From Phapecoctavirus DIJ07P2: a stretch of DNA of 64,000 nucleotides. Under the pieces are notes generated by a model. It saw only the letters and a program-made list of their open reading frames with translations. It ran no database searches and had not been told where the DNA came from. Positions 17,449 through 29,501 of the stretch are shown in pieces. The number at the start of each line of letters is the position of its first letter. Positions within the stretch are counted from its first letter, which is position 1. Both the position numbers and the translations under genes were made by a program. The stretch is from sequence record OZ035771.1; one strand, 5' to 3'.

Positions 17449-17628
17449 ATGGCACGTTTAGCAGACCATGAAATCTTTAAACCTATTCTGAACCACTATG
17501 ATGAACTTAAAGCAGTGTTGGATTGTTATAGAGAGGATGAAGAACGTTTGGAAGTCAATCTTAAGATAGTTCTGATGAAAGCTTTTCAAGACGGGCAAGC
17601 TAAAGTTTTAGAAGGCATGAAAAAATGA
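17449..17628 (+). CDS. Hypothetical protein (59 aa)
   Basis: Start at ATG (MARLADH) after AAAGGAG RBS. Confidence 0.45.
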   Translation: MARLADHEIFKPILNHYDELKAVLDCYREDEERLEVNLKIVLMKAFQDGQAKVLEGMKK

Positions 17629-18167
17629 GAATAACTGATGAATATGTATTCTTCTTTTCACATAAAGATGTGTTTAGTAATTGGTATATTGCACCCTTTA
17701 CAGAAACTGAACCAGGTTACAATGAGACTTTCTGTTGTGTTGAGCAATATATGATGTGGCGTAAGGCTTTGCTGTTCAAGGATCATGCGATTGCAGCAGC
17801 TATCCTTGATCACTCAACTATACGTGACAACGAGAGGAAACAAGCATACTACAAACGTATGGGTCGAGCGGTATCTGGTTTTAATAATGATATGTGGGAA
17901 GAGAACCGTGAGCGTATTGTTATGCGAGGTTTATGCTTGAAATATGTACAGAATCCAGATTTGTATGCAGACTTACACCTTTACCAATACAAAACGTTTG
18001 TTGAAGCAAGTCCTTACGATAAGGTTTACGGTATTGGAATGGGAATGTATGAACCAGGGGTGCTAAATCCGGTCAACTGGAAAGGGCAAAATCTTTTAGG
18101 TAAATATCATAACAAACTGATCGAAATACTTTTCCCAGACAAAATACCGCAAAGACGATATTTGTGA
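17625..18167 (+). CDS. NADAR-domain (YbiA/DUF1768-like) protein
   Basis: FFFS..DVFSNWY, CCVEQYMMWRKALLF, VEASPYDKVYGIGMG, GQNLLGKYHNKLIEIL match the NADAR pattern as recalled. Confidence 0.65.
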   Translation: MRITDEYVFFFSHKDVFSNWYIAPFTETEPGYNETFCCVEQYMMWRKALLFKDHAIAAAILDHSTIRDNERKQAYYKRMGRAVSGFNNDMWEENRERIVMRGLCLKYVQNPDLYADLHLYQYKTFVEASPYDKVYGIGMGMYEPGVLNPVNWKGQNLLGKYHNKLIEILFPDKIPQRRYL

Positions 18168-18259: not shown

Positions 18260-18390
18260 CCTATACAAACCCTTGTCTTTTTCAGTTTGCATCACTAGGA
18301 TTCGATCTGAGTGGGTTCCTGAAGGTCTGCCAATAAGATTAAAGGTTATCTCAAATTCCCACTACCTATTATCTCAAAAATCCCTCAAAT

Positions 18391-18456
18391 TATTTAAACT
18401 TTTTAAGAATTTACAAAAGTGAAAGTTGAAAACCAAAATTTAAAGTTTAGGAAAAT
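18391..18456. repeat. AT-rich direct repeat, copy 1
   Basis: TATTTAAACTTTTTAAGAATTTACAAAAGTGAAAGTTGAAAACCAAAATTTAAAGTTTAGGAAAATT; near-duplicate at 18529-18593. Confidence 0.6.
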
Positions 18457-18528
18457 TATCTTAAAATGTCAGATACAAAACAAAACTCAAAAGTCAAGGA
18501 AAATTTTAAAAATTTTGCGCGCCCACAG

Positions 18529-18593
18529 TATTTAAAGTTTTTTTGCTTTTACAAAAATGAAAGTACAAAAGCAAAATTTAAAGTTTACAAAAA
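18529..18593. repeat. AT-rich direct repeat, copy 2
   Basis: TATTTAAAGTTTTTTTGCTTTTACAAAAATGAAAGTACAAAAGCAAAATTTAAAGTTTACAAAAATT. Confidence 0.6.
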
Positions 18594-18607
18594 TTTATGC
18601 AGATGGG

Positions 18608-18655
18608 AATGAGAAGAGTTCTCATATGGAAATGCAAATGATAATGATTCGCATT
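18608..18655. promoter_or_regulatory. Fur-box-like palindromic operator candidates (AATGAGAAGAGTTCTCAT; AATGATAATGATTCGCATT)
   Basis: Resemble the 19-bp Fur consensus GATAATGATAATCATTATC as recalled. Confidence 0.35.
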
Positions 18656-18693
18656 TAGGTTTATAAATGAGATTGATTCTTATTTGATAAGGT

Positions 18694-18714
18694 AAATGAT
18701 AATCATTCTCATTT
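18694..18714. promoter_or_regulatory. Fur-box-like operator candidate (AAATGATAATCATTCTCATTT)
   Basis: About 15 of 19 positions match the Fur consensus by eye; shares ATCATTCTCAT core with sites at 28963 and 29141. Confidence 0.4.
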
Positions 18715-18972
18715 AGAGAATGACGCGCAGGGGCGGTGTTTGTCTCGCGCTCCCGTGTCCCCTCGCCATGTAATAAGAATAACAGATCCAGCCAGGAAAG
18801 CAAGCGATTATTTTATCTTTACATTTCTTTACAAATATATAGCGCCCAGCCTACCGGCGATCAACCTTCCAACCAGCGCCCTGGTATGTTAGCCCCGCCT
18901 TTACGCCGTGGGGGTGGCGCTTCCTCTTCTGTATGTAAAACAGTATAAGCCCGATCCCTGGGCTTGTCAAGA

Positions 18973-19239
18973 TTATTTTTTGTTTTCTTGCCAGGTTAGG
19001 ACACCTAGCCAAAAATGAATATCACCTTTTCCCCAATGTGGTATATTGCTTTCTTTCCCACCTTCACGCGCCCAGGTAAAACCGCCCGTGTAACTTTGTA
19101 ATTGATAACTATCCTCGACCTTATAATCTGATAGGTTGAGAACTGTTTCAACCTTTAAGCCCGTTGCGCTTGCTACCTGGTGCACCGTGCCGCCTTGCCA
19201 GCCCAATGAGTGCATAAGGTGTAATGTAGTATTTGTCAT
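18973..19239 (-). CDS. Hypothetical protein (88 aa) in GC-richer spacer
   Basis: Only leftward ORF in this region; weak RBS. Confidence 0.3.
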   Translation of the reverse strand: MTNTTLHLMHSLGWQGGTVHQVASATGLKVETVLNLSDYKVEDSYQLQSYTGGFTWAREGGKESNIPHWGKGDIHFWLGVLTWQENKK

Positions 19240-19348
19240 GGTGTCGCCCTTTCTTTGTTGTGCGCCCTGGTTGGCGCGGTAGAAAGATGATAGCCCTTTC
19301 CTTTATATATAGCAAGCAAAAAGAAAATAAAAAAGATTGAAAAAGTGA

Positions 19349-19407
19349 TTGACGTTCGCCAGGTGGCGGCATAATATTTACCACGTAGGGCGGCAATGGT
19401 GCCGCTC
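19349..19407 (+). promoter_or_regulatory. Promoter + 5' stem-loop cassette (-35 TTGACG, -10 TAATAT, hairpin GCGGC-AATGGT-GCCGC)
   Basis: 17-nt spacer; hairpin starts a few nt after predicted +1. Confidence 0.55.
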
Positions 19408-19426
19408 ATTATTTGGAATTAAGATC

Positions 19427-19624
19427 ATGGCAACATTGCACATTGTGGCGAAAGCTGGACAAATCAACGTAGTAGTAAACGGTTTTACTGAGTTCAGTCA
19501 TCCCCAGGATGATCATGAAACGGTTTTATCTTTCATTGATTCACTGTTAGAAATGGGAGTCATTACAGAAGACCAGCACGCTACAAAATGCAAACGCGTT
19601 AATCAGATTGCAGGAATAGAATAA
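19427..19624 (+). CDS. Small hypothetical protein (65 aa)
   Basis: First ATG downstream of cassette hairpin; track start at 19349 lies upstream of the promoter. Confidence 0.5.
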   Translation: MATLHIVAKAGQINVVVNGFTEFSHPQDDHETVLSFIDSLLEMGVITEDQHATKCKRVNQIAGIE

Positions 19625-19630
19625 AAAGTA

Positions 19631-19689
19631 TTGACAACAACCAACAACCTGATAAGATGTATCACATAAGGCGGGAAATGGTTTCCCGC
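19631..19689 (+). promoter_or_regulatory. Promoter + 5' stem-loop cassette (TTGACA, TGnTAAGAT, GCGGGAA..TTCCCGC)
   Basis: Extended -10; hairpin followed by ACAACAGAAGAGAG RBS region. Confidence 0.55.
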
Positions 19690-19713
19690 TCACAACAGAA
19701 GAGAGAAATCATC

Positions 19714-19986
19714 ATGGCATCATATAGCGCAACAATGATCGTAGCTGGTACCACTGGTAAACCTATGAGCGGTGGCGGATCTTTCGCTAATATTAATATT
19801 GATGGGCGTTTATCCCTGGACGCAGCGATCACCGTGGCGCGGGAAACATTTAAGAAAGAATGTGATTTCAACAAGCAAGATTATTTAGGTTTTGCTATTG
19901 AAAAAACGGCGCGTTTTGTTGATTATAAAAGTCCGAAAATGGTTGATACTACACTAAAAGCGCAAGATGTAGCCTTTTTGCTTTAA
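19714..19986 (+). CDS. Small hypothetical protein (90 aa)
   Basis: ATG (MASYSATMIV) after cassette and AGAGAG RBS. Confidence 0.5.
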   Translation: MASYSATMIVAGTTGKPMSGGGSFANINIDGRLSLDAAITVARETFKKECDFNKQDYLGFAIEKTARFVDYKSPKMVDTTLKAQDVAFLL

Positions 19987-19989
19987 GGC

Positions 19990-20045
19990 TTGACATTAAC
20001 GAATAATTTGTTAATATGTTACATAAAGCGGGAACTATTCCCGCT
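19990..20045 (+). promoter_or_regulatory. Promoter + 5' stem-loop cassette (TTGACA, TAATAT, AGCGGGAA..TTCCCGCT)
   Basis: Same architecture as other cassettes. Confidence 0.5.
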
Positions 20046-20062
20046 ATTTGTAAGGTGGTAGA

Positions 20063-20320
20063 ATGTTTTACATCAAATTAAAAGGTCACGTGATCGCGTT
20101 CAAGGATAACGCTTTTTACAGATTAGCAAAATATGCGTTAATACATCCCCATTATGTTTATATAAGGGGGCGTGATGAAATAAATATCTTTGATCAAACA
20201 ACATGCGAGAACATCGAGATCCGCAAGGTTGGCGTACGTGACTATCGTACATCTTTCTACCCTTGCAAGGATTCAGCAAGTCTTTTTAAAGTATGCCAAT
20301 TGTTGAAAAAAGGTGGTTAA
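20063..20320 (+). CDS. Small hypothetical protein (85 aa)
   Basis: AAGGTGG RBS. Confidence 0.5.
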   Translation: MFYIKLKGHVIAFKDNAFYRLAKYALIHPHYVYIRGRDEINIFDQTTCENIEIRKVGVRDYRTSFYPCKDSASLFKVCQLLKKGG

Positions 20321-20321
20321 T

Positions 20322-20879
20322 ATGGGCCGCGAATATGTGATCCAGTCTTGGGTAAAACATGAAGCAGATGATCCGCGCATCATTCCTGATTATCTTGTCG
20401 ATGAATCCACGGGCTATAGCGGGGAGCAAATAGGTAACAGATTAGCACGTAGTAACGGCAACGTAAAAGCGCGTTATGTGCGCCCTGGCTGGCTGGCAAA
20501 TGGTAACGCTGATTTATCCAGTGCGGAAGATGCGAGCGACGGCGCGAAAGATAATCCTTTGTACAAAGTTGATCCGGCTTTTCGTGTCCTGGATGAATAC
20601 CCCAGCAAGATAGCGGCGCTCGATCAGGCCCTGGAAAGTAAGCGCATCACCTGGACCGCTTACAACATGGCAAAAAACGTACTTGATGGTAAATTGATTC
20701 AAGCTGAAAGAAAATTAGCCAAAATTGCAGCCATAGCCCAGGAGGAAGACGAGGAGACAACGGAAGAGGAAGAGTACGAAGAGATCCCGCCGTTGTTGTG
20801 TGTTGATGCTTTTCCTGATTATCAGCCGACAGAGGAAGAAAAAAGGATCGCACTAGAAAACTTTGAAAATAGTCTTTGA
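20322..20879 (+). CDS. Hypothetical protein with acidic C-terminal tail (185 aa)
   Basis: ATG after AAAAGGTGG RBS; C-terminus EEDEETTEEEEYEE. Confidence 0.5.
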   Translation: MGREYVIQSWVKHEADDPRIIPDYLVDESTGYSGEQIGNRLARSNGNVKARYVRPGWLANGNADLSSAEDASDGAKDNPLYKVDPAFRVLDEYPSKIAALDQALESKRITWTAYNMAKNVLDGKLIQAERKLAKIAAIAQEEDEETTEEEEYEEIPPLLCVDAFPDYQPTEEEKRIALENFENSL

Positions 20880-20932
20880 CATATCGCCGCCACTGGCATA
20901 ATATTTACCACGTAGGGCGGCAATGGTGCCGC
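20876..20932 (+). promoter_or_regulatory. Promoter + 5' stem-loop cassette (TTGACA, TAATAT, GGCGGC-AATGGT-GCCGC)
   Basis: Near-identical to cassette at 19349. Confidence 0.55.
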
Positions 20933-20962
20933 TCATAGTGAAATTATGCAAGAGGCTTACAA

Positions 20963-21058
20963 TGATTAATAAAGGAAATAGCTTGACGGTTGGAACGATT
21001 AACGCTATCATTCTCGCCGTTCCATTTTGGGTTGTAGTAGCGGCTATTATTTTCTAAA
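20963..21058 (+). CDS. Micro-ORF, hydrophobic peptide (31 aa), self-derived
   Basis: AAGAGG RBS 6 nt before ATG; MINKGNSLTVGTINAIILAVPFWVVVAAIIF. Confidence 0.4.
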
Positions 21059-21066
21059 AAATATTC

Positions 21067-21127
21067 TTGACAACGTTTTTTAATCTGATAAGATGTATCA
21101 CATAGGGCGGCGGAATACTTCCCCGCC
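21067..21127 (+). promoter_or_regulatory. Promoter + 5' stem-loop cassette (TTGACA, TGATAAGAT, GGGCGGCGGAA..TTCCCCGCC)
   Basis: Conserved block TAAGATGTATCACATAGGGCGG. Confidence 0.55.
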
Positions 21128-21148
21128 AAAACAAAAAAGGGTAACACA

Positions 21149-21511
21149 ATGAGCAAGCAAATCAATACTATCATGTTTAATCTGGTATCTTTCCGCGATG
21201 ATATGAAAAATTTACCACGTGAAACGGTTGATATTCATGTTTCAGCTTATCGCGCCCTTATTGACATGTTACCGCTAAAACGTGATCAACATGCCGCTAA
21301 TATGATGCTTAATGCTATGCTTAAAAAGATGATTCAAACGGATCTCACCCTGGCATATGAGTATCAAGGGCGCTTATATGCAAATTACAACAGAGCGGTA
21401 CCTGGTCTGGGAAGTACTGAAGAGTTGCACGGCTTAAACCTGGATCAAAACACTTGGGATAGTATGCGCCGCGTTATGGTATGGGCCGAAAGCGGTAAAA
21501 TTTACGAATAA
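21149..21511 (+). CDS. Small hypothetical protein (120 aa)
   Basis: ORF after cassette. Confidence 0.5.
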   Translation: MSKQINTIMFNLVSFRDDMKNLPRETVDIHVSAYRALIDMLPLKRDQHAANMMLNAMLKKMIQTDLTLAYEYQGRLYANYNRAVPGLGSTEELHGLNLDQNTWDSMRRVMVWAESGKIYE

Positions 21512-21517
21512 AAACGG

Positions 21518-21575
21518 TTGACACTGTTTTTTATTCTGGTATAGTTTATCACGTAGGGCGGCAATGGTGCCGCCA
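21518..21575 (+). promoter_or_regulatory. Promoter + 5' stem-loop cassette (TTGACA, TATAGT, GGCGGC-AATGGT-GCCGCC)
   Basis: Same architecture. Confidence 0.5.
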
Positions 21576-21594
21576 ACAATAAAAGGTTAACATC

Positions 21595-21774
21595 ATGACC
21601 ATCATTGCAAAAACTGAGATTATAGGTTTAGATTCGATCCTCCTGGCTTATGAGGAAACTTTAAAAATGTATGTAGTGACCTATGGTGATTATGTGCGTG
21701 AATACGAATACATTGATCTTGCTTTCGAATGTTACATTCGCCAGGTCAATAAAGCCTATAACGATTATCGTTAA
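21595..21774 (+). CDS. Small hypothetical protein (59 aa), self-derived
   Basis: ATG after AAAAGG RBS; MTIIAKTEIIGLDSILLAYEETLKMYVVTYGDYVREYEYIDLAFECYIRQVNKAYNDYR. Confidence 0.45.
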   Translation: MTIIAKTEIIGLDSILLAYEETLKMYVVTYGDYVREYEYIDLAFECYIRQVNKAYNDYR

Positions 21775-21793
21775 AAGTTTTAGTCTTATACTA

Positions 21794-21846
21794 TTGACAA
21801 TGAGTGATAGTATAAGCATAATAACTTTTATCGGGAATACTTCCCA
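21794..21846 (+). promoter_or_regulatory. Promoter + imperfect 5' stem-loop cassette (TTGACA, CATAAT)
   Basis: Hairpin CGGGAA-TAC-TTCCC(A) degenerate. Confidence 0.45.
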
Positions 21847-21870
21847 CTAACCAAAAAAGAGAGTAATATC

Positions 21871-22236
21871 ATGGCTATTAATATCAATGTTTCCTCTTAT
21901 GCTACCCTGGCTGACACGGCTAAAATTGAATTATCCAGCATTGAGGCGGTGCATATTAGCGCCCGTCGTTGGTTTCAACAGTCCTACGGTAACACATATT
22001 TTTCTTTAATGGTTGACGTTGAGATCGGCGGTAAACTGATCGAGGTGGTTAACGTTCCGTTTCAATATGGTTATGGTGATCATTTTGATACCGTCGCCCT
22101 GGAAGAATTTAGCAAGGTTATTAATATGGAAGGTAAAGAGTTTTCACGCGGCGCGTATCTTTCCCGTTTTTGCCGTGATAATGGGATCACTGTATACAGT
22201 CATGCGAGCGATGTTAAACGTAAAAAAGATTTATAA
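21871..22236 (+). CDS. Small hypothetical protein (121 aa)
   Basis: ORF after cassette; N-terminus MAINI shared with 22744 ORF. Confidence 0.5.
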   Translation: MAININVSSYATLADTAKIELSSIEAVHISARRWFQQSYGNTYFSLMVDVEIGGKLIEVVNVPFQYGYGDHFDTVALEEFSKVINMEGKEFSRGAYLSRFCRDNGITVYSHASDVKRKKDL

Positions 22237-22243
22237 AAAGCAT

Positions 22244-22302
22244 TGACAGCACGAATAAAAAGAGTAAACTGTATTACATAGAGAGCGGGAACACTTCCCG
22301 CC
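22244..22302 (+). promoter_or_regulatory. Promoter + 5' stem-loop cassette (TTGACA, TAAACT, GCGGGAA..TTCCCGCC)
   Basis: Conserved block TAAACTGTATTACATAG. Confidence 0.5.
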
Positions 22303-22326
22303 TCACTGAAAAAAGAGATTAACATC

Positions 22327-22566
22327 ATGGCTAAATCAAAAATGTTCTTAGGTCACAAAAATAAAACTCATTGGAATGTAAGCCTTTGGATTAATAACGA
22401 TGAATCGTTATATCGGTTGGCGAAAGAATTTATCGCCGCTAATACTAATCGTAATGATGCTGCCCGTGATATGATGTTATTCCTGGAACAAACTGGACAA
22501 GATAAAACTCCAGACGGTTTCAAGTATAGCACTACAGCGATCCGCGCCGCGATGGTTGGAATGTAA
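22327..22566 (+). CDS. Small hypothetical protein (79 aa)
   Basis: ORF after cassette. Confidence 0.5.
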   Translation: MAKSKMFLGHKNKTHWNVSLWINNDESLYRLAKEFIAANTNRNDAARDMMLFLEQTGQDKTPDGFKYSTTAIRAAMVGM

Positions 22567-22661
22567 AGGAGATATAAAAATGAAACATCGTTCTACCTAT
22601 CTAACAAAACGTTTTAGCTTAGATCATAAATTGGGCTATTACGGAAGAAATAGAAAATAAT

Positions 22662-22721
22662 TTGACAACGTTTAAAATTAGTGTAAGATGTATCACATAG
22701 GGCGGGAAGTGGTTTCCCGCC
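22662..22721 (+). promoter_or_regulatory. Promoter + 5' stem-loop cassette (TTGACA, TAAGAT, GGGCGGGAA..TTCCCGCC)
   Basis: Same architecture. Confidence 0.55.
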
Positions 22722-22743
22722 AACAACAGAGAGATTAAAGATT

Positions 22744-22971
22744 ATGGCTATCAATATTGTTCGCGTATCCGGCACCGTTGGCACTTCCCAAGTTATTGCA
22801 GTTGTAACAAACAAAAAGATTAATGATGTATGTGAAAGCTTGAATAAGTGGGCTATTGTTAATTTTGGGGAATATGCAAGCGTCGAGTACATCGAATCCT
22901 ACCAGGTGCCAACCATCAGCCTAACCGATCTCAACGTTGATCGCTTGTTGTGCCTGGATGAATTAATCTGA
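22744..22971 (+). CDS. Small hypothetical protein (75 aa)
   Basis: ORF after cassette. Confidence 0.5.
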   Translation: MAINIVRVSGTVGTSQVIAVVTNKKINDVCESLNKWAIVNFGEYASVEYIESYQVPTISLTDLNVDRLLCLDELI

Positions 22972-22982
22972 AAAAAGATTGT

Positions 22983-23037
22983 TGACACCGGAAAGAAAAA
23001 GAGTAGAATATATTACATAGGGCGGCAATGGTGCCGC
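22983..23037 (+). promoter_or_regulatory. Promoter + 5' stem-loop cassette (TTGACA, TAGAAT, GGCGGC-AATGGT-GCCGC)
   Basis: Same architecture. Confidence 0.55.
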
Positions 23038-23062
23038 TCACAACAGAAGAGAGATTATCACG

Positions 23063-23278
23063 ATGGCTAATATCCGCACTTTACTGAAAAATGCAAGTCA
23101 AGTTTTATTTTCAGATGATGAGTATTTCAATAAAGACATTACAGGCGTGAAAAATTTAAAAGACGTGAAGGATGTTATCGGTATTCGTGGATCTTTACGT
23201 AAAGGTGACTACTATGGTAACAAGGTGCAATATAAACTGTCAAAGGATTACAATTTTACTTTGACAATTATTTCATAA
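23063..23278 (+). CDS. Small hypothetical protein (71 aa)
   Basis: ORF after cassette. Confidence 0.5.
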   Translation: MANIRTLLKNASQVLFSDDEYFNKDITGVKNLKDVKDVIGIRGSLRKGDYYGNKVQYKLSKDYNFTLTIIS

Positions 23279-23283
23279 AACCG

Positions 23284-23345
23284 CTTGCAATACTGCAAAA
23301 ATAAAGTAAACTGTATTCATCAAGGCGGTGGAATAGCCAACCGCC
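23284..23345 (+). promoter_or_regulatory. Promoter + 5' stem-loop cassette (CTTGCA, TAAACT, GGCGG..CCGCC)
   Basis: Weaker -35; hairpin retained. Confidence 0.45.
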
Positions 23346-23369
23346 TAACAAAGAGAAGAGGAAAACATC

Positions 23370-23537
23370 ATGATCACTTTCGCTACCCGTGAAGCCGCTC
23401 GCAACGTTGCACGTAAAGTTAACGCCGCCAACCTGGGCGCTACGCTTAAAGCTCCGGTAAAAGATGAATCAGGCAAATGGATCTTCCCTGGTCTGCGTCA
23501 TGCTGACAAGTTAGGTACTTTAAGCCTTAAAAAATAA
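23370..23537 (+). CDS. Small basic protein (55 aa), self-derived
   Basis: GAGAAGAGG RBS; MITFATREAARNVARKVNAANLGATLKAPVKDESGKWIFPGLRHADKLGTLSLKK. Confidence 0.45.
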   Translation: MITFATREAARNVARKVNAANLGATLKAPVKDESGKWIFPGLRHADKLGTLSLKK

Positions 23538-23540
23538 TCG

Positions 23541-23580
23541 TTGACTTTTCGTTATAGCGCCTTACAATGGGCGCTATAGA
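23541..23580 (+). promoter_or_regulatory. Promoter variant (TTGACT, TTACAAT) with hairpin AGCGCC..GGCGCT overlapping the -10
   Basis: Differs from canonical cassette in that the stem-loop spans the -10 element. Confidence 0.4.
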
Positions 23581-23612
23581 GAAGAGAAACCACTACTAAC
23601 AAGGAAACCATT

Positions 23613-23834
23613 ATGATCACTTTCGCTATTGTCGCCGTTGTTGCTGGTCAAGTTTACGTAAATGAGACATTTACTACAGAAGACAAGGCAGCAGGAGATA
23701 TAACCGCCGTTTACAATGAGTGCAAGGCAGTAGAAAGGATGTTAGCGCCTTGTATGCTAATGAGTGAACGCCAGGACGGAATAACAGTATTTACTAACAT
23801 TGGAACAGGGTACCAAATGGTAGTAACAAAATAA
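23613..23834 (+). CDS. Small membrane-anchored protein (73 aa)
   Basis: N-terminal hydrophobic MITFAIVAVVAGQVYV. Confidence 0.5.
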   Translation: MITFAIVAVVAGQVYVNETFTTEDKAAGDITAVYNECKAVERMLAPCMLMSERQDGITVFTNIGTGYQMVVTK

Positions 23835-23837
23835 AGC

Positions 23838-23895
23838 TTGACACCGATTTAATTTTTAGTAAACTGTTACACGTAGGGCGGGAATAGTTCCCGCT
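23838..23895 (+). promoter_or_regulatory. Promoter + 5' stem-loop cassette (TTGACA, TAAACT, GGGCGGGAA..TTCCCGC)
   Basis: Same architecture. Confidence 0.55.
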
Positions 23896-23913
23896 CAAAA
23901 AGAGAGAAAGATC

Positions 23914-24267
23914 ATGAAAGCACAAAATGCAATTAAAGAGTACATCCTTGCCGCTATCGGTTTTAATGATTACGGTATTACAACAGAAAAAGAGAAGATC
24001 GCGGAATTGATGCGCCGTTTTAATTCCGAGTACTGGTACCCTGATAACCAATCACGTTTTAATTATAGTATTGTTAAAGCACTTGCATCATGGTTACAAG
24101 GTTTGCCATCAGATATTAATATCGCTTTCGAATATTGGGAAGTGGATCGCTTGTTAACATCCTGGGGATACATTAAAGAGAATAGCAGCGATGATAAAAT
24201 CCAACGAGAAAGGGAAAATTATTGGCTTTATATTGCAGGCGTGATCCTTGCTTGCTCTTATGAATGA
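23914..24267 (+). CDS. Small hypothetical protein (117 aa)
   Basis: ORF after cassette. Confidence 0.5.
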   Translation: MKAQNAIKEYILAAIGFNDYGITTEKEKIAELMRRFNSEYWYPDNQSRFNYSIVKALASWLQGLPSDINIAFEYWEVDRLLTSWGYIKENSSDDKIQRERENYWLYIAGVILACSYE

Positions 24268-24273
24268 TAAACC

Positions 24274-24328
24274 TTGACAATTTTACAAAACAGTTTAAAT
24301 TAACAATATAGCGGCAATGGTGCCGCTC
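24274..24328 (+). promoter_or_regulatory. Promoter + 5' stem-loop cassette (TTGACA, hairpin AGCGGC-AATGGT-GCCGCT)
   Basis: -10 less clear (TTTAAAT/TAACAAT). Confidence 0.45.
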
Positions 24329-24346
24329 ATATAAAGAGGAAACAAA

Positions 24347-24493
24347 ATGAATACATCTAATCGCGCAGAAAAAATTCAATCTTCCAAGATCCGCAAGGCC
24401 TGGAACGAGGAAGTGATCCGCAAAGGCGACAAGCGTAATAAAACAAAGCGCGGGAAGAGTGACAAATATAATTGGATGGATTTAGAGGATTAA
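24347..24493 (+). CDS. Small basic protein (48 aa), self-derived
   Basis: AAAGAGG RBS; MNTSNRAEKIQSSKIRKAWNEEVIRKGDKRNKTKRGKSDKYNWMDLED. Confidence 0.45.
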   Translation: MNTSNRAEKIQSSKIRKAWNEEVIRKGDKRNKTKRGKSDKYNWMDLED

Positions 24494-24500
24494 CATAACA

Positions 24501-24527
24501 AGGGCGCACCAAGCGCCCTTTCTTTTT
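24501..24527 (+). terminator. Intrinsic terminator (AGGGCGC-ACCAA-GCGCCCT + TTTCTTTTT)
   Basis: GC stem followed by T-tract directly after stop at 24493. Confidence 0.65.
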
Positions 24528-24548
24528 ATATGCAGAGGATAAACAAAG

Positions 24549-24734
24549 ATGACTTTAAACGAGCTTAAAACAGCCTACAACGCAACATTAAAAATAGCCG
24601 TGCGTTACCGTGATGCGTATGGTTTTATCGCGCAGGGCGTGATCCTGGGCTTTTCTGACGATGGTTTGATCTATGTTGATGCACATCACAACAAGGTTAA
24701 ACCTGAAAACGTCATTAATATAAAATATCTTTAA
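24549..24734 (+). CDS. Small hypothetical protein (61 aa)
   Basis: ORF after terminator, no cassette upstream. Confidence 0.4.
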   Translation: MTLNELKTAYNATLKIAVRYRDAYGFIAQGVILGFSDDGLIYVDAHHNKVKPENVINIKYL

Positions 24735-24740
24735 AAATGG

Positions 24741-24800
24741 TTGACACCATAACCGGACCTGTTAAACTGTATTACATCAGGCGGGGAATAGTTCCCCACC
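24741..24800 (+). promoter_or_regulatory. Promoter + 5' stem-loop cassette (TTGACA, TAAACT, GCGGGGAA..TTCCCCAC)
   Basis: Same architecture. Confidence 0.55.
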
Positions 24801-24819
24801 ATACAAAAAGGTAAATATT

Positions 24820-25026
24820 ATGATCACCGCAAAACAAGAAAAAATCATTATCGACGTTGCAGCCGTTGCCGCTATCGCTATTATTGGATCTTATTATGAT
24901 ACCCGTTTCCCGTCGGCTATGCATGAGGTCGCCGCCGTTGCATCAGTTGGCGTACTGTTTTACGTTGGTAAACGCTATTTATCACCAATGATTAACAAGC
25001 TGACACCGTGGAAAAATAAAGGTTGA
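24820..25026 (+). CDS. Small membrane protein (68 aa)
   Basis: Hydrophobic IIIDVAAVAAIAIIGSYY and VAAVASVGVLFYVG segments. Confidence 0.5.
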   Translation: MITAKQEKIIIDVAAVAAIAIIGSYYDTRFPSAMHEVAAVASVGVLFYVGKRYLSPMINKLTPWKNKG

Positions 25027-25078
25027 TCCTGTTTTACATTATGTTATAGTTATCGTGTAGGGCGGCAATGGTGCCGCG
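25023..25078 (+). promoter_or_regulatory. Promoter + 5' stem-loop cassette (TTGATC, TATAGT, GGCGGC-AATGGT-GCCGC)
   Basis: Same architecture; track ORF start at 25068 falls inside the hairpin. Confidence 0.5.
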
Positions 25079-25097
25079 CCCCTTTGAGGATGCAATC

Positions 25098-25382
25098 ATG
25101 AGTAAAGCTAACACCGTGCTAATGTTTTCCCTGATTAATGATCTCGCTTACTTGTCCAACATGACGCAGGAGGGTAACACATTAACGGCAACATTCACCA
25201 ATAAGCTTGACCGAGTGATCATCGTCTCACTGAAAACAGTTAGTAAAGGCTTTTACTTGTTAGCTTATCATTGTATCACTGATACCGATGAGACAAGCCA
25301 GGACTATAGCGCCCCTTTCCCTGAATCAATGGCACGGGAGATCATCGCCGCCGTTGTAAATGATGGTTTGTTTACTGCATAA
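25098..25382 (+). CDS. Small hypothetical protein (94 aa)
   Basis: Start moved to ATG (MSKANTVL) downstream of hairpin. Confidence 0.5.
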   Translation: MSKANTVLMFSLINDLAYLSNMTQEGNTLTATFTNKLDRVIIVSLKTVSKGFYLLAYHCITDTDETSQDYSAPFPESMAREIIAAVVNDGLFTA

Positions 25383-25400
25383 AATAATTTAGAAAAAGGC

Positions 25401-25460
25401 TTGCAATCATTTTGAGATAGTGTATATTTAATTCATAGGGCGGCGGGAATAGTTCCCAAA
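25401..25460 (+). promoter_or_regulatory. Promoter + imperfect 5' stem-loop cassette (TTGCAA, TATATT)
   Basis: Hairpin GGGCGGCGGGAATAGTTCCC degenerate. Confidence 0.4.
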
Positions 25461-25480
25461 GCAAACGAGAGGATTACACG

Positions 25481-25600
25481 ATGAGCAAGTACACAGTAGA
25501 ATACACGGTAGAGAATCCGGCAGTATCCGAAGGTAAAAAGATGACATTTACCATCAGTATAATCGCTTTCGTTGTCACTATCTTATCAATCATCTTATAA
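25481..25600 (+). CDS. Micro-ORF, single-pass membrane peptide (39 aa), self-derived
   Basis: GAGAGG RBS; MSKYTVEYTVENPAVSEGKKMTFTISIIAFVVTILSIIL. Confidence 0.4.
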   Translation: MSKYTVEYTVENPAVSEGKKMTFTISIIAFVVTILSIIL

Positions 25601-25610
25601 GGTGCACACC

Positions 25611-25772
25611 ATGAAAACAACAGATATTATCAAAGAGATCGCCCTTGCCGCTGGCGTTGAGATCGAGGAAGTGATCGCGCTCAATCTTACAGAAAACGAT
25701 CTGCGCAACTATGAAGCGGAAAGCGTGAAAGCAAGTGGCGCGGTCCTGGCATATAATCCGGCTAACAAATAG
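25611..25772 (+). CDS. Small hypothetical protein (53 aa)
   Basis: ATG (MKTTDIIKEI) after AAGGTG RBS. Confidence 0.45.
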   Translation: MKTTDIIKEIALAAGVEIEEVIALNLTENDLRNYEAESVKASGAVLAYNPANK

Positions 25773-25773
25773 T

Positions 25774-25830
25774 TTGACAAGCTGAATCAACCTGATAAGA
25801 TGTATCACATAGGGGCGACAAGCGCCCCGC
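25774..25830 (+). promoter_or_regulatory. Promoter + 5' stem-loop cassette (TTGACA, TGATAAGAT, GGGGCG-ACAA-GCGCCCC)
   Basis: Same architecture with different hairpin sequence. Confidence 0.55.
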
Positions 25831-25849
25831 CTAACAGAGAGATAGAATC

Positions 25850-26128
25850 ATGACCATCGCCAAATTATCCGCCGAAGAAATCGAACAAGTGCTAACTACT
25901 AACCTGGAACAATGGAAACGTGAGGCAGATATACAATCAGCACAATGGCTTAACGAGAAGTTAACACCGGATGATCTGAGTAAGATTATAGATCCTCAAT
26001 TCTACGAAGATATTCACGACACCGTTTTAAGCGTCGAGGATGTACTTGATAAGCATTATATTGCTACTGATTTGCAGGTTTACGGGCGTAAAAACTTTAT
26101 TACTATTCACGACATTTACAATAACTAA
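25850..26128 (+). CDS. Small hypothetical protein (92 aa)
   Basis: ORF after cassette. Confidence 0.5.
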   Translation: MTIAKLSAEEIEQVLTTNLEQWKREADIQSAQWLNEKLTPDDLSKIIDPQFYEDIHDTVLSVEDVLDKHYIATDLQVYGRKNFITIHDIYNN

Positions 26129-26136
26129 GGGATAAC

Positions 26137-26265
26137 ATGAATCCGAAAGATATGCAAGCATGGAAAGGGTACGACGATCTAAGCGCCTTGCGCAATAAGT
26201 CAAGCCGTAACCTTAGACGGTTAGAAGCAAAGAAAAAGAAAAAACAGTTTGACAAGTCCGCTTAA
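26137..26265 (+). CDS. Small basic protein (42 aa), self-derived
   Basis: MNPKDMQAWKGYDDLSALRNKSSRNLRRLEAKKKKKQFDKSA; 3' end overlaps next cassette -35. Confidence 0.35.
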   Translation: MNPKDMQAWKGYDDLSALRNKSSRNLRRLEAKKKKKQFDKSA

Positions 26266-26306
26266 TCTGGTAAAGTGTATCTCGTAGGGCGGCAATGATG
26301 CCGCTC
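26249..26306 (+). promoter_or_regulatory. Promoter + 5' stem-loop cassette (TTGACA, TAAAGT, GGCGGC-AATGAT-GCCGC)
   Basis: Same architecture. Confidence 0.55.
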
Positions 26307-26325
26307 ACAAGAAGAGAGAAAAATC

Positions 26326-26610
26326 ATGAAGATCACAAAAAGCCTAACTAATTATGCAGCACGTCGCGGATTATGCTTAACCGTTGAAAACTCAGGGAAA
26401 GAAGACTTTTTGTGTTTTTGGGAGCTTGAAAATGATTGCGAGTGGATGTTTTCTTATTCTATCTGCGAAGATCAAAACGGTTGTTTGTTAACCTGGCGCG
26501 GTAATATCTATTTACCGGAAGAAATTAAAGAAGAGTTACCAGGTACGATCATGACAGAGAGACAGCTTAAGGAAGTGATCAATTTTGTAGGGCAAAACAT
26601 TAAAAAATAA
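26326..26610 (+). CDS. Small hypothetical protein (94 aa)
   Basis: ORF after cassette. Confidence 0.5.
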   Translation: MKITKSLTNYAARRGLCLTVENSGKEDFLCFWELENDCEWMFSYSICEDQNGCLLTWRGNIYLPEEIKEELPGTIMTERQLKEVINFVGQNIKK

Positions 26611-26611
26611 T

Positions 26612-26674
26612 TTGACAGCACGCAAACAACGTAGTAAAGTTTACCACATAGGGCGGCGGAATGGTCCACCGCTC
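26612..26674 (+). promoter_or_regulatory. Promoter + 5' stem-loop cassette (TTGACA, TAAAGT, GGGCGGCGGAATGGTCCACCGCTC)
   Basis: Same architecture. Confidence 0.5.
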
Positions 26675-26695
26675 ACAACAGAAGAGAAACAAATC

Positions 26696-26866
26696 ATGAT
26701 CCCGACTATGTTTTATGTATCGCGCAAAGGTCACAATATTTTTTGGTCTGAAGATTTAAATGAAGCCATGACGTTTGCCCGTGATCGTGTTGCTATCGGT
26801 GGCGTTAACATCACCGTAACCGATGAAAATGGCATTGAATACTATAACGGCGACGATGAAGAGTAA
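26696..26866 (+). CDS. Small hypothetical protein (56 aa)
   Basis: Start moved to ATG (MIPTMFYVS) downstream of hairpin. Confidence 0.45.
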   Translation: MIPTMFYVSRKGHNIFWSEDLNEAMTFARDRVAIGGVNITVTDENGIEYYNGDDEE

Positions 26867-26931
26867 TTAATAAGGCGGGGAATACTTCCCGCCACGCAGT
26901 GAATTTTCCGTTTGGGAAGTAAAAAATAAAT

Positions 26932-26993
26932 CTTGACGATAATTTGTTATCTGATAGAATGTATTTCGTAGGGCGGGGCAATAAGGCAAGCCC
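26932..26993 (+). promoter_or_regulatory. Promoter + 5' stem-loop cassette (TTGACG, TAGAAT, GGGC..GCCC)
   Basis: Same architecture; a second hairpin (GCGGGGAATACTTCCCGCC) sits just upstream at 26875-26895. Confidence 0.5.
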
Positions 26994-27010
26994 ACAAAGA
27001 GGAAAATAAA

Positions 27011-27379
27011 ATGAGCAAATCAGCAATTAAAGCACTTGAAAAAGCACAAGAAGTGATCGCAACGTCAACCACTGGCGCAAAGGTTAATCTCGTTTGTTAT
27101 CTGACAGATGAAACTATCCGTAAAAATTGGCGTAATGCTGATTTACTGGCTTGCTTATTGATTAATAGTGTCGCTAATGCTTTCCAGTGTGAAACAGCCG
27201 AGAGCCTGGAGGAAAACTTGTTTGATAATATGGATCAAGCCATTGAAACCTATATACAATCAAACCTGGATAGCTGGAACAGTAAAACATGGCCCGACAA
27301 TTTACGCGATACAACTGATCAACTGATCCGCCTTGCCCTGATGGTTGAACGCGATAACGTTTACAACAGCACAAAGTAA
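27011..27379 (+). CDS. Small hypothetical protein (122 aa)
   Basis: ORF after cassette. Confidence 0.5.
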   Translation: MSKSAIKALEKAQEVIATSTTGAKVNLVCYLTDETIRKNWRNADLLACLLINSVANAFQCETAESLEENLFDNMDQAIETYIQSNLDSWNSKTWPDNLRDTTDQLIRLALMVERDNVYNSTK

Positions 27380-27388
27380 GATTATACA

Positions 27389-27410
27389 AGGGCGCACTAA
27401 GCGCCCTTTA
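27389..27410 (+). terminator. Putative terminator hairpin (AGGGCGC-ACTAA-GCGCCCT)
   Basis: GC hairpin after stop; weak T-tract. Confidence 0.4.
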
Positions 27411-27443
27411 ACGTAAAGAAATGTAAATAATGCGCTATCCCTA

Positions 27444-27470
27444 TTGACAGGGGATCGGCGTTATATTATA
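27444..27470 (+). promoter_or_regulatory. Sigma70-type promoter without stem-loop (TTGACA, TATATT)
   Basis: Last promoter of the array, precedes 27518 ORF. Confidence 0.45.
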
Positions 27471-27517
27471 TTTAACTTACTGGCAGCAAACAACGAAACG
27501 AAACAAAGGACAACATC

Positions 27518-27937
27518 ATGAACATTAAATCAAATAATCCAGCTTACTCCTTCGATAACGCTTTTTGTCACGGTAGCGCCGCCAAAGGCTTCGAAATCGA
27601 TGGTAAATTGGTTATCGTGAACGTTGACGGGGAAGAGGTTGCAGTGTATCCGGTAAACGATGTTAAAAGCCGTTTACAATGCCGCATGGATGTTACCGCA
27701 TATCAGCTTGATCCGGTCCGTGTAGTTGCCCTGGTATTAGAGGAAGAGATCAAAGCAATGCATCACAGTAATAAGTTTATTGGTGACGCGCAGGATAATA
27801 TGAACGTTTGCCGCCATAAAGTTAATGAAGCATTGAAAGAATGCGGTTTTAAGGATCTGATGATTAAACGTGATGAAAAATTCCGCTTTCGTAATGACCT
27901 GGCAAACCGGATCTACTCAATCTATGAAGCTTTATAA
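27518..27937 (+). CDS. Hypothetical protein (139 aa)
   Basis: Last ORF of the array, followed by strong terminator. Confidence 0.5.
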   Translation: MNIKSNNPAYSFDNAFCHGSAAKGFEIDGKLVIVNVDGEEVAVYPVNDVKSRLQCRMDVTAYQLDPVRVVALVLEEEIKAMHHSNKFIGDAQDNMNVCRHKVNEALKECGFKDLMIKRDEKFRFRNDLANRIYSIYEAL

Positions 27938-27952
27938 TCGACAACAAAACAA

Positions 27953-27979
27953 GGGGCGCACAAAGCGCCCTTTCTTTTT
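27953..27979 (+). terminator. Intrinsic terminator (GGGCGC-ACAAA-GCGCCC + TTTCTTTTT)
   Basis: GC stem plus T-tract after stop at 27937. Confidence 0.65.
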
Positions 27980-27989
27980 GCCCGAACAA

Positions 27990-28900
27990 TGTTGATAGCT
28001 TTCGCCTATGAAAAACCGACACAGAACAAAACTGAATAAATCGCGGTATCGAGCTAATCAACCAGCAAACGAATAACCATACCTCCCAGGGTTACAGGCT
28101 GTTAGAGAGCCATTTAGAGCGGTTAAAATCGATCAACAACCAACAACAAACCATCAAAAACACCCTTTTACCTCCTTTCTAGTGCAATGATAACCATTAT
28201 CATCTACCCATGATTATCTATGCAATATAAGCGCATAATTATAATGTTGATAATAGTTCGCAACAACTAACCAACAAACAACATAAAACAATAAGCAAAC
28301 TAATCATAATCAAAGGAATAATAGCAAGATGATTGATAACGACAAACAATCGAACCATGATGAATACTAAGCAAGATAACGATAACACGACAAAACAACC
28401 AACTAACGAACAATAACAAACGAAACCATTAAAATAATAACTATTAGCAAAATAGTGCCTGAATGAAATCATTACAAAACGAATCATTCACAGAGTCATC
28501 ATTAGCACGCTATGCCGGACACATAGCGAGCTAATAATAAGCCAACTACACCCCAACAATCATAACCATCGGTGACGGTTATTTCTTGTTACTGCGTAGC
28601 TTGCAATAATTGCAAGCGTAATGACGCTTACACTTATTGCGCTGGCTTATTATTAGCATTATATGTAATTACCAAGATCATAACATTAGCGCAATAACAA
28701 TAGTCATTGTAATAATTACATGAGTTATCACTATCGTTCAGTGTGATCATCATTAGCACAGTGAATAATTGCACGTAGCAACATGAGCGAATAGCGACAG
28801 GTTGCATAGTGTGCACATAGTGTATAAACATACAAGAAAATAAAGGCTAATCTTTTGGGGGCGAATACTATCGCGTAGCGATATGTTGAGCACCTTCTCT
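27990..28900. other. Non-coding region with strong A+C strand skew, GATAA-type hexamers and palindromes
   Basis: Plus strand dominated by A/C (e.g. CAACAACCAACAACAAACCATCAAAAACACC); palindromes TGATAACCATTATCA (28188-28202) and CTTGCAATAATTGCAAG (28600-28616); no convincing ORF. Confidence 0.5.
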
Positions 28901-28962
28901 TAAACGTAAATAAAATCAGAAAATTCTTGATTTATTTTAGTTTTTATGTTAATAAACGTTTA

Positions 28963-28980
28963 AATAATAATCATTCTCAT
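28963..28980. promoter_or_regulatory. Fur-box-like operator candidate (AATAATAATCATTCTCAT) followed by TATAAATA
   Basis: Shares ATCATTCTCAT core with 18694 site. Confidence 0.35.
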
Positions 28981-29140
28981 ATAAATAATAGTCTGCTTGT
29001 CATGAGCGGGATTAGTTGACAATGTTCCGTCATATGATGAAGTTGCCAAGCCATTGATAAATAAGTGTTTGTGTGATTTATAATCAGGTGGCCCACCTTG
29101 TCGCTATGTTGGCATGAGCCTTGCATAAGTCATTGAATAC

Positions 29141-29161
29141 GAATGATAATTATTCTCATTC
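29141..29161. promoter_or_regulatory. Fur-box-like palindromic operator candidate (GAATGATAATTATTCTCATTC)
   Basis: Near-palindrome; matches Fur consensus at most positions by eye. Confidence 0.4.
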
Positions 29162-29501
29162 GCATGATATTTGGGAATTGTCGCTGCGTGGACCTGACGG
29201 CCCGAAAATTCGCGTTAAGCACTTCTTACGTATACGCCATGATTTTTGCCATATGATATTGATTCTATTAGATATTCTTGCCATTATTGCCATGAAACAT
29301 GGTGTCCCGAAATAATCTCTCCCCGTAGATATTTTGGGTTACTTTTTATACAAGAGTGGGGTGTCAAAAATAATCAGTATATATGGGATAATTGATAGGA
29401 ATCCCCTATGATAATTCGATTGTAATTCCCTAAGATTGATCGTATGATGTTGGTGATTGATGATTGCCATGAAAGATGGCTAACGATGAGAGGAGATTGT
29501 C

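Follow-up and report, generated by a model that had tools for sequence, protein, structure and literature searches.

The 64,000-nucleotide (nt) stretch of Phapecoctavirus DIJ07P2 DNA analysed here (sequence record OZ035771.1; hereafter the window) contains, at positions 19,349 to 27,979, an array of small genes in which one regulatory cassette, a sigma-70-type promoter followed by a GC-rich hairpin, is repeated head to tail. The array as a whole probably represents the hyperplastic region of early genes in a phAPEC8-like (Phapecoctavirus) myovirus. Comparison with related phages suggests that the cassettes are the places where genes are gained, lost and swapped, and the hairpins, to judge from their substitution pattern, are selected as structures rather than as sequences. 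The array region (8.2 kb) is 95-96% identical to the Phapecoctavirus genomes of tuntematon, Mt1B1_P17, Ro121c4YLVW and others. All belong to the phAPEC8-like virulent myoviruses of the subfamily Stephanstirmvirinae, whose genomes measure about 150 kb. The early character of the genes is deduced from the host-type promoters and from the presence of a homologue of T7 gene 1.1.

Sequence reading and three independent scans gave 22 near-consensus sigma-70-type promoters, all on the plus strand, at 19349-27472. Nineteen of them fit at least 10 of the 12 consensus positions, and about ten have a TGn extension. Promoters of this quality number 2.3 per kb in the array, whereas the remainder of the window has 0.40 per kb per strand (Poisson P = 2e-9). 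The -35 hexamer mostly starts 1-10 nt past the stop codon of the preceding open reading frame (ORF). Twenty promoters are followed by a GC-rich hairpin. The exceptions are promoters 23541 and 27444 (here and below the coordinates of cassettes and promoters begin at the start of the -35 hexamer, and hexamers are given in the order -35/-10; all are on the plus strand). The former, the atypical cassette 12 (23541..23612, TTGACT/TACAAT), has an inverted repeat ATAGCGCC/GGCGCTAT around the -10 hexamer and no hairpin downstream. The latter, promoter 22 (27444..27517, TTGACA/TATATT), has no hairpin.

The sequence upstream of the -35 hexamer is A/T-rich, and the consensus of alignment A1 reads AAAAAAA..TTGACA ... 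AGAG..ATCATG. In this alignment the spacer between the hexamers shows no conservation, unlike the hexamers themselves, the box and the stem. The box is the block (G)TATCAC(A/G)TAGG between the -10 hexamer and the stem, also seen in repeat families D1-D8. The stem is followed by a leader poor in T and rich in A and C (CACAACAGAAGAGAG and variants), a purine-rich ribosome-binding site and, very often, ATCATG. The GC core of the hairpin (GGCGG...) starts 9-11 nt after the -10 hexamer in all 20 hairpin cassettes of the window; in five of them the minimum-energy fold adds weak outer pairs from 4-7 nt after this hexamer. The folding energies range from -5.5 to -17.7 kcal/mol, and the z-scores relative to shuffled sequences are mostly -2.5 to -4.7, with four cassettes between -0.8 and -1.9. 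Transcription from sigma-70 promoters usually starts about 7 nt after the -10 hexamer. With this geometry the hairpin is predicted to occupy the 5' end of the transcript of its cassette, the core beginning some 3-5 nt into it. The initial annotation, made from the sequence of the window, had described 22 promoters of the TTGACA type, a conserved block after the -10 hexamer and a hairpin at the presumed transcript start. The scans and the alignment recover the first two, and the position of the core is compatible with the third. Two other statements had been too general: a hairpin accompanies 20 of the 22 promoters, as judged by RNA folding and shuffling, and the ribosome-binding site is of the AGAGAG type in about 9-10 cassettes, the others having AAGG, GAGG or AAGGTGG.

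Similar cassettes are found in many phages. The covariance model R1, which describes the whole cassette with 8 base pairs and was built from 20 copies of the window, finds in the window these seeds and one weak extra match (62217-62313, minus strand). The homologous array of tuntematon yields about 30 copies, and another 86 kb of that phage (36,000-122,000 of the record) yields two. Since almost all matches fall within arrays, the cassettes are concentrated in the hyperplastic region rich in small ORFans. Arrays are present in the 11 Phapecoctavirus relatives examined. The same architecture was found in phi92 (Justusliebigvirus, 19 R1 hits), slur16 (Vequintavirus), 19-1-2 (Avunavirus) and the Pectobacterium phage phiTE (Certrevirus). 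It also occurs in the jumbo phage PBECO4 (348 kb), where R1 has 6 hits within 4 kb. A BLAST search with the 91-nt cassette consensus produced matches at 878 places in 198 phage records. Thus conservation in related genomes, the lack of which would have spoken against the initial annotation, extends from the 11 relatives to five more distant phages. A scan of IMG/VR with 15-mers gave 26 loci, and R1 recognizes real cassettes on two contigs (97 kb and 149.5 kb), the other matches being due to chance. No similarity to the cassette was detected in 5,426 complete E. coli genomes, and mimicry of a host element was rejected on this ground.

The match at 62217-62313 is one of several isolated cassette-like units outside arrays, and has a different stem, GGGAGGA/TCCTCCC. 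Two such units were found in tuntematon (L018, 3256-3346; L019, 37305-37401), one of them upstream of a gene encoding a TerC-like membrane protein. Genomes 85-95% identical to the array have been deposited as phages of Campylobacter (nine records), Pseudomonas (PsgM04F), Acinetobacter (ABPW7), Klebsiella (ZCKP1) and Serratia. Some of the host names given in these records should be viewed sceptically.

The hairpins vary in sequence and retain the ability to fold. RNAalifold applied to the raw MAFFT alignment predicted no structure, as the stems were misaligned. The stems were re-aligned by the covariance model with the structure supplied. In the resulting alignment of 82 distinct copies, which is fitted to the structure, all 8 modelled pairs have changed on both sides, and pairing is retained in 86.9% of cells, compared with 73.2% in shuffles and 23-78% when the partners are slid. 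The 69 well-folded copies represent 56 distinct hairpin sequences of 17-34 nt with loops of 3-6 nt. In 44 of these 69 copies, counted across all genera, the fold starts 10-12 nt after the -10 hexamer, and earlier starts are caused by weak added outer pairs. The distance between the outer arms (GGCGG...CCGCY) is not fixed. This fits a folded single strand and is hard to reconcile with a rigid operator in double-stranded DNA recognized by a dimeric protein. Three elements are conserved beyond the needs of pairing: the box, the outer stem GGCGG/CCGCY and the apical motif AAU(A/G)G. A scan of positions 18500-29500 with Rfam 15 gave chance-level matches only (E >= 0.9).

The hairpins could be mistaken for terminators. 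Indeed, the GenBank record MZ726793 labels each cassette as a promoter followed by a "rho-independent terminator predicted by WebGeSTer". However, 51 of the 69 hairpins have at most one T in the 10 nt following the stem, and only one of the 20 cassette hairpins of the window passes a scan for a hairpin with a T-run. It belongs to cassette 1 (19349..19426; TTGACG, -10 TAATAT at 19372, hairpin 19388-19407, R1 score 59 bits). Since most hairpins have no U-tract, they are not canonical terminators, and the GenBank labels are probably misleading. That they might prove to be terminators of upstream genes had been named in the initial annotation as a way in which it could fail. On both conditions open to sequence analysis, this one and conservation in related genomes, the outcome favoured the annotation. 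Three hairpins elsewhere in the array are of the terminator type, with a GC stem and a T-run. They are the canonical intrinsic terminator at 24500..24527 (family D12), a terminator-like hairpin at 27390..27415, which belongs to this family as well and has a shorter T tail, and the canonical intrinsic terminator at the end of the array, 27951..27979, identified by the terminator scan and among the repeat families (all on the plus strand). ORF 24549-24734 (plus strand) comes immediately after the strong terminator 24500-24527 and lacks its own sigma-70 promoter; its transcription may depend on read-through or on another class of promoters.

One explanation is that the hairpins are attenuators or terminators of transcription coming from upstream cassettes, and prevent its build-up along the array. 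Attenuation or termination was the role originally proposed for the stem-loops of the promoter early stem-loop (PeSL) cassettes of T4-type phages, and one stem-loop of phage RB49 decreased the expression of lacZ about as strongly as a terminator (PMC2839356). Besides the GenBank labels, this agrees with the existence of promoterless hairpins between ORFs and with the fact that the terminator scan finds no other terminator between most gene pairs. However, the phage has textbook terminators where it needs them (24500, 27951), and most cassette hairpins are poor in T. Moreover, a core 9-11 nt after its own -10 hexamer would act on its own transcript as well, and the fixed spacing, needless for a pure terminator of upstream transcription, is not a property of the RB49 stem-loop, which lies inside the promoter spacer. 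We consider this role unlikely.

Another possibility, which we favour tentatively and at somewhat less than even odds, is that the hairpin protects the end of the RNA. The region is probably built of portable expression cassettes of about 75-100 bp, each opening with an A-rich stretch that usually holds the stop codon of the previous gene. Host RNA polymerase would start just before the hairpin core, as predicted by the promoter geometry, so that each small gene would yield a short transcript beginning with the hairpin. The hairpin probably acts as a folded nucleic-acid strand, most simply RNA, rather than as a double-stranded DNA operator, and would guard the 5' terminus of the cassette's own transcript against 5'-end-dependent decay by RppH and RNase E. 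When transcription reads through, the same hairpin would be a barrier on the downstream side of the gene before it. Stabilization of E. coli mRNAs by 5'-terminal stem-loops is established (Emory 1992; Bouvet & Belasco 1992; both as they appear in the reference list of PMC3997798). A different main role, that of an insulator keeping the ribosome-binding site open, was rejected, as the computed effect is too small. The probability that the ribosome-binding window is unpaired is 0.66 with the hairpin and 0.61 with the hairpin shuffled in primary transcripts, and 0.53 and 0.54, respectively, in read-through transcripts.

Several observations weigh against RNA-end protection. The 5' position of the hairpin is predicted solely from promoter geometry. 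A single-stranded 5' tail of 3-6 nt is reportedly, according to the Belasco papers, near the upper limit for protection. The excess of G.U over A.C mismatches expected of an RNA acting in the sense strand is weak: 33 against 18 (P = 0.05), or 23 against 14 (P = 0.19) in the non-redundant set. Promoterless units of a hairpin and a ribosome-binding site occur between ORFs, namely, the orphan hairpin GGCGGGGAATACTTCCCGCC of the window (26874..26893, plus strand), which directly follows the stop codon of ORF 26696-26866, and a unit at about 10778-10800 of tuntematon L001. Thus some role of the hairpin is independent of the primary 5' end. Finally, the loop motif AAU(A/G)G and the box 5' of the stem exceed the needs of a pure stabilizer and hint at a specific binding partner.

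The last point leads to another explanation, in which the box and the hairpin together would be recognized, as a tag, by a dedicated protein of the phage or the host. This protein would treat all early transcripts, or their promoters, as one regulon. Possible roles of such a tag include early-gene shut-off, antitermination of the nut/boxB type and targeted cleavage. The conservation beyond pairing is what would be expected in this case, as is the fixed distance between the element and the promoter: the box CAC(A/G)TAGG, the outer stem and the apical motif recur in Stephanstirmvirinae, Vequintavirinae, PBECO4 and one Pectobacterium phage. On the other hand, no candidate binding protein has been identified and no Rfam family matches. 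Many functional-looking cassettes differ in the stem or the loop (GGGGCG-ACAA-GCGCCCC; GGGGCAAG-AUUGA-CUUGCCUC), and the likeness could be explained by shared ancestry and cassette exchange. We regard this explanation as rather doubtful. Its extended form is more speculative still: the box plus hairpin, CAC(A/G)UAGG-GGCGG...AAU(A/G)G...CCGCY, may conceivably be a cis-acting RNA tag carried by practically every early transcript of Stephanstirmvirinae, Vequintavirinae and Asteriusvirus jumbo phages and recognized by a dedicated protein. If so, this protein would set the fate of the early regulon, through protection from a phage-induced RNase, timed shut-off or modification of the polymerase, and the cassette would serve both as a unit of mobile expression and as an address label for regulation.

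Whatever the function of the hairpin, the cassettes are associated with rearrangements. Chained BLAST alignments of the homologous arrays of the 11 relatives against the window yielded 19 distinct indel or replacement events, 17 of which touch a cassette. Of the 38 endpoints, 24 lie in cassettes, which form 24.6% of the region (P = 5e-7). ORF 23063-23278, situated between cassette 10 (22982..23062, TTGACA/TAGAAT, hairpin 23020-23039) and its recombination partner, cassette 11 (23285..23369, TTGCAA/TAAACT, hairpin 23323-23346), is absent from nieznany and nepoznato, with an overlap of 59-77 nt at the junction. The cassette remaining in these two phages is chimeric, of the left type through the spacer and of the right type from the -10 hexamer on. 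ORF 21595-21774 is absent from four phages, with an overlap of 33 nt. The left partner of this deletion is cassette 6 (21518..21594, TTGACA/TATAGT, hairpin 21553-21577) and the right one is the degenerate cassette 7 (21794..21870, TTGACA/CATAAT, weak hairpin 21833-21845); in ECO340P2 the switch occurs at the ribosome-binding site and ATG.

Other events involve whole modules or parts of cassettes. Cassette 18 (25774..25849, TTGACA/TAAGAT, hairpin 25812-25828, GGGGCG-ACAA-GCGCCCC) is missing together with its ORF as a block of 348 nt (25772-26119) in six relatives. Nepoznato lacks 62 nt (23835-23896, from the promoter to the hairpin) of cassette 13 (23838..23913, TTGACA/TAAACT, hairpin 23876-23896). 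A gene of about 300-310 bp, absent from the window, is inserted at the atypical cassette 23541 in four relatives. Relatives also carry 2.4-3.0 kb, again absent from the window, between the orphan hairpin at the left edge and cassette 21 (26933..27010, TTGACG/TAGAAT, hairpin 26968-26995). The order of modules is permuted between phi92 and Phapecoctavirus, and stretches of 0.2-1.1 kb shared with Phapecoctavirus arrays are 84-90% identical in slur16 and 89-93% identical in 19-1-2, which indicates exchange of modules between subfamilies (Phapecoctavirus and Vequintavirinae).

In the scheme that we prefer, about 20-30 near-identical cassettes arranged head to tail serve as regions of homology. By recombination or template switching from one cassette to another, modules consisting of a cassette and an ORF would be deleted, inserted, replaced and re-ordered, with expression left intact. 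The suggestion of the initial annotation that the cassettes are recombination-prone modules is in this respect supported by the breakpoints, junction overlaps and chimeras in relatives. The clustering of endpoints taken by itself, however, is no proof that the cassettes promote recombination, and this point counts against the scheme: indels breaking ORFs are purged by selection, and cassettes occupy almost all intergenic DNA. The specific evidence for cassette-to-cassette exchange thus consists of the long junction overlaps and the chimeras. Indeed, the cassettes could be mere regulatory regions, similar by descent or duplication, in which endpoints are seen because intergenic indels survive. 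In agreement with that, several events have little or no junction overlap (sgap -5 to -8 or positive). In nepoznato and anhysbys the deletion of 27411-27948 used two copies of a terminator (the 27390 family and 27954; 26-nt overlap), so any short repeat can serve. This explanation would leave unaccounted for the overlaps of 33-77 nt within cassettes, the clean left/right chimeras, the gene order permuted between genera and the near-identical modules in different subfamilies. It also agrees poorly with the assignment of the ORFs to 25 different PHROG families: they are not paralogues, and the repeated cassettes are therefore not a by-product of gene duplication. We find it improbable that the cassettes have no role in recombination.

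It is far less probable still that the hairpins are structure-specific recombination sites, similar to attC, for a phage recombinase, for instance the product of the serine recombinase gene 32268-32945. The palindromes are indeed kept in structure rather than in sequence, a gene of the resolvase family lies 4.3 kb downstream of the array, and a specific DNA-binding protein was considered by the authors who described PeSLs (PMC2839356). However, the mapped crossovers are scattered over the cassette (spacer and -10 hexamer, ribosome-binding site and ATG, edge of the -35 hexamer) and are not centred on the hairpin, and for this reason site-specific recombination at the hairpin was rejected. The hairpins, about 20 nt long, are also far shorter than attC. 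Sites of serine invertases of the hix/gix type are A/T-rich, and the cassette hairpins do not resemble them.

The remaining cassettes of the window conform to the general pattern. In the left part of the array they are cassette 2 (19631..19713, TTGACA/TAAGAT, hairpin 19670-19690), which has an R1 score of 88 bits; cassette 3 (19990..20062, TTGACA/TAATAT, hairpin 20027-20045); cassette 4 (20876..20961, TTGACA/TAATAT), which has a core at 20915-20934 within an extended fold at 20909-20940 and shares with cassette 1 an identical copy of 42 nt (family D4); cassette 5 (21067..21148, TTGACA/TAAGAT, hairpin 21106-21127); cassette 8 (22243..22326, TTGACA/TAAACT, hairpin 22281-22304); and cassette 9 (22662..22743, TTGACA/TAAGAT, hairpin 22701-22721). 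Further to the right are cassette 14 (24274..24346, TTGACA/TAAATT, hairpin 24306-24332), cassette 15 (24741..24819, TTGACA/TAAACT, hairpin 24780-24800) and cassette 16 (25023..25097, TTGATC/TATAGT, hairpin 25060-25080), in which the -35 hexamer overlaps the preceding stop codon. They are followed by cassette 17 (25401..25480, TTGCAA/TATATT), with a weak hairpin at 25440-25462, cassette 19 (26249..26325, TTGACA/TAAAGT), with a core at 26287-26306 and an extended fold at 26281-26311, and cassette 20 (26612..26695, TTGACA/TAAAGT, hairpin 26651-26674).

The array contains 27 ORFs of 26-185 amino acids (aa), all on the plus strand and with clean translations, spanning positions 19427-27937, and almost all of these genes are preceded by a cassette; the initial annotation had counted about 26, of 31-185 aa. 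The first nine are located at 19427-19624, 19714-19986, 20063-20320, 20322-20879, 20962-21057, 21149-21511, 21595-21774, 21871-22236 and 22327-22566, the next nine at 22580-22660, 22744-22971, 23063-23278, 23370-23537, 23613-23834, 23914-24267, 24347-24493, 24549-24734 and 24820-25026, and the last nine at 25098-25382, 25481-25600, 25611-25772, 25850-26128, 26137-26265, 26326-26610, 26696-26866, 27011-27379 and 27518-27937. The GC content of the array is 0.407, compared with 0.384 elsewhere in the window, and the array ranks fourth among 277 windows of the same size. Its higher GC content, previously noted by eye, is thus real, although the difference is small.

Of the 27 ORFs, 25 match PHROG families, each a different one, and are therefore real conserved genes; two belong to none. 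Twenty-four of these families have no known function, and the remaining match, of a 39-aa ORF, is to a family annotated as membrane protein in the moron and host-takeover category. The matching genes of other Phapecoctavirus genomes are labelled "hypothetical" or "membrane protein", with the exception of one "phosphoribosylpyrophosphate synthetase". At curated cut-offs Pfam recognizes two of the array ORFs, 22327-22566 (DUF7249) and 24347-24493 (plus strand, 48 aa). The latter follows a cassette and belongs to the T7 gene 1.1 family (Phage_1_1, E = 5e-13). In T7, an unrelated podovirus, gene 1.1 is a gene of the early region. Sequence searches of the PDB with the six largest array ORFs gave nothing below E = 0.08. 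The composition of the ORFs suggests that three of the products are small membrane proteins. Several others are very acidic (185 aa, net charge -17; 92 aa, net charge -10) and several are basic, a mixture which appears typical of early host-interaction genes. The earlier statement that the ORFs have no recognizable function therefore holds for nearly all of them, but not for the members of the T7 gene 1.1 and DUF7249 families and the three small membrane proteins. The array genes are candidates for small early proteins with roles in host take-over or anti-defence.

One insertion is specific to the window when compared with eight relatives, in which the alignment is uninterrupted up to the junction. 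It is 87 nt long (22567-22653, plus strand) and contains a good Shine-Dalgarno sequence (AGGAG) and a basic ORF of 26 aa that belongs to no family and has no cassette of its own. No tRNA genes were detected in the window by a tRNA scan.

The array is flanked by two non-coding regions with a 17-bp palindrome, ATGATAATCATTCTCAT, which has 10 strand matches at 6 sites, compared with 0.39 expected. Three sites are at 18638-18712, and the others are at 28187-28203, 28964-28980 and 29143-29159. The palindrome closely resembles the E. coli Fur box (GATAATGATAATCATTATC). It could be an operator of host Fur or of a phage repressor, or it could represent iterons of the origin type. Beside the Fur-box-like sites, at 18386-18595, are two A/T-rich direct repeats of 72 nt (family D11), 82% identical and 138 nt apart; a "repeat_region" is annotated at this place in the tuntematon record. 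The array is closely preceded by plus-strand genes encoding an AAA ATPase (14861-16000), a protein with a CapR homology domain (16069-17076) and a NADAR-domain protein (17625-18167). NADAR enzymes reverse the ADP-ribosylation of DNA by DarT, and the last gene may thus be an anti-defence gene. The serine recombinase gene mentioned above (32268-32945, plus strand) encodes a Resolvase N-terminal domain (E = 5e-18). It is found here in a virulent myovirus, and no evidence ties it to the cassettes.

These observations extend the PeSL idea, that of regulatory cassettes doubling as recombination linkers that shuffle accessory genes, beyond T4-type phages to no fewer than three further groups of large virulent phages. 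The strategy looks like a general solution rather than a peculiarity of T4. The fixed position of the hairpin in the transcribed region makes the possible roles of the stem-loop (5' stabilizer, attenuator, protein site) directly testable on about 20 natural variants. The cassettes also point to those early genes that are most plastic and least understood in phages widely used for therapy and biocontrol (phAPEC8, phi92 and rV5 types) and represent ready-made strong, compact expression parts for E. coli. In the literature searched, which did not include the phi92 and PVP-SE1 genome papers, no description of such cassettes in phAPEC8, phi92 or rV5-type phages was found; the rV5 paper lists merely 33 promoters and 20 terminators.

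Several known systems share some features with the cassettes. The 5' stabilizer hairpins of ompA and papA (PMC3997798) are likewise stable, lie a few nucleotides from the 5' end (predicted in our case) and precede an accessible ribosome-binding site. However, they are single and gene-specific, whereas here one family of hairpins would start about 20 transcripts of one array, and the predicted 5' tail is at the limit for protection. Intrinsic terminators also have GC-rich hairpins of 6-9 bp with short loops, but the cassette hairpins mostly lack the U-tract and are downstream of a promoter rather than at the end of a gene. Lambdoid morons, composed of a promoter, a gene and a terminator, are similar in being self-expressed accessory genes inserted among others, and the unit 25772-26119 is present or absent as a block. 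Morons have no common flanking sequence, and their insertion is presumed to be illegitimate; here homology is supplied by the shared cassette. Integron attC arrays resemble the array in their small promoter-dependent ORFs, in palindromes conserved as structures and in gain and loss of cassettes. They differ in that here every unit carries a promoter, a tyrosine integrase is missing, the hairpins are much shorter and the crossovers are off the hairpin.

The closest analogues are the PeSLs, the cassettes of an early promoter and a stem-loop known in T4-type phages (RB49/phi1, PST/T4, nt-1/KVP40; Arbiol 2010, PMC2839356; Comeau 2014, PMC4122927). They sit in hyperplastic regions, mediate modular shuffling and can form mini-circles, and five variable positions have been described (PMC2839356, PMC4122927). 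The likeness noted in the initial annotation holds for the kind of element: in both cases an A/T-rich upstream sequence, a near-consensus sigma-70 early promoter, a G/C stem-loop, a conserved leader, a Shine-Dalgarno sequence and an ATG precede many small ORFans, the location is hyperplastic, indels of close relatives end in cassettes and neighbouring cassettes recombine. It does not hold as identity of the element. The RB49 cassettes that we inspected have the layout AAAAAGTTGTTGACA-GGGG..loop..CCCC-TATAAT-leader-AGGAGAATCAAAATG, that is, the stem-loop is in the spacer between the -35 and -10 hexamers and is absent from the transcript of its cassette, whereas here it lies downstream of the -10 hexamer, in the transcribed leader. 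Moreover, here the hairpin is preceded by a conserved box and is not followed by U or A/U. In the window, the RB49-like layout is seen in cassette 12 (23541) alone. The sequences are unrelated: the best match of R1 in 100 kb of RB49 scores 30 bits (E = 0.01), compared with 50-88 bits here. The lineages are also different, Stephanstirmvirinae, Vequintavirinae and Asteriusvirus as opposed to Straboviridae. Thus, as far as sequence comparison goes, the cassettes have the defining features of the PeSL kind and differ from known PeSLs in layout, sequence and phage lineage.

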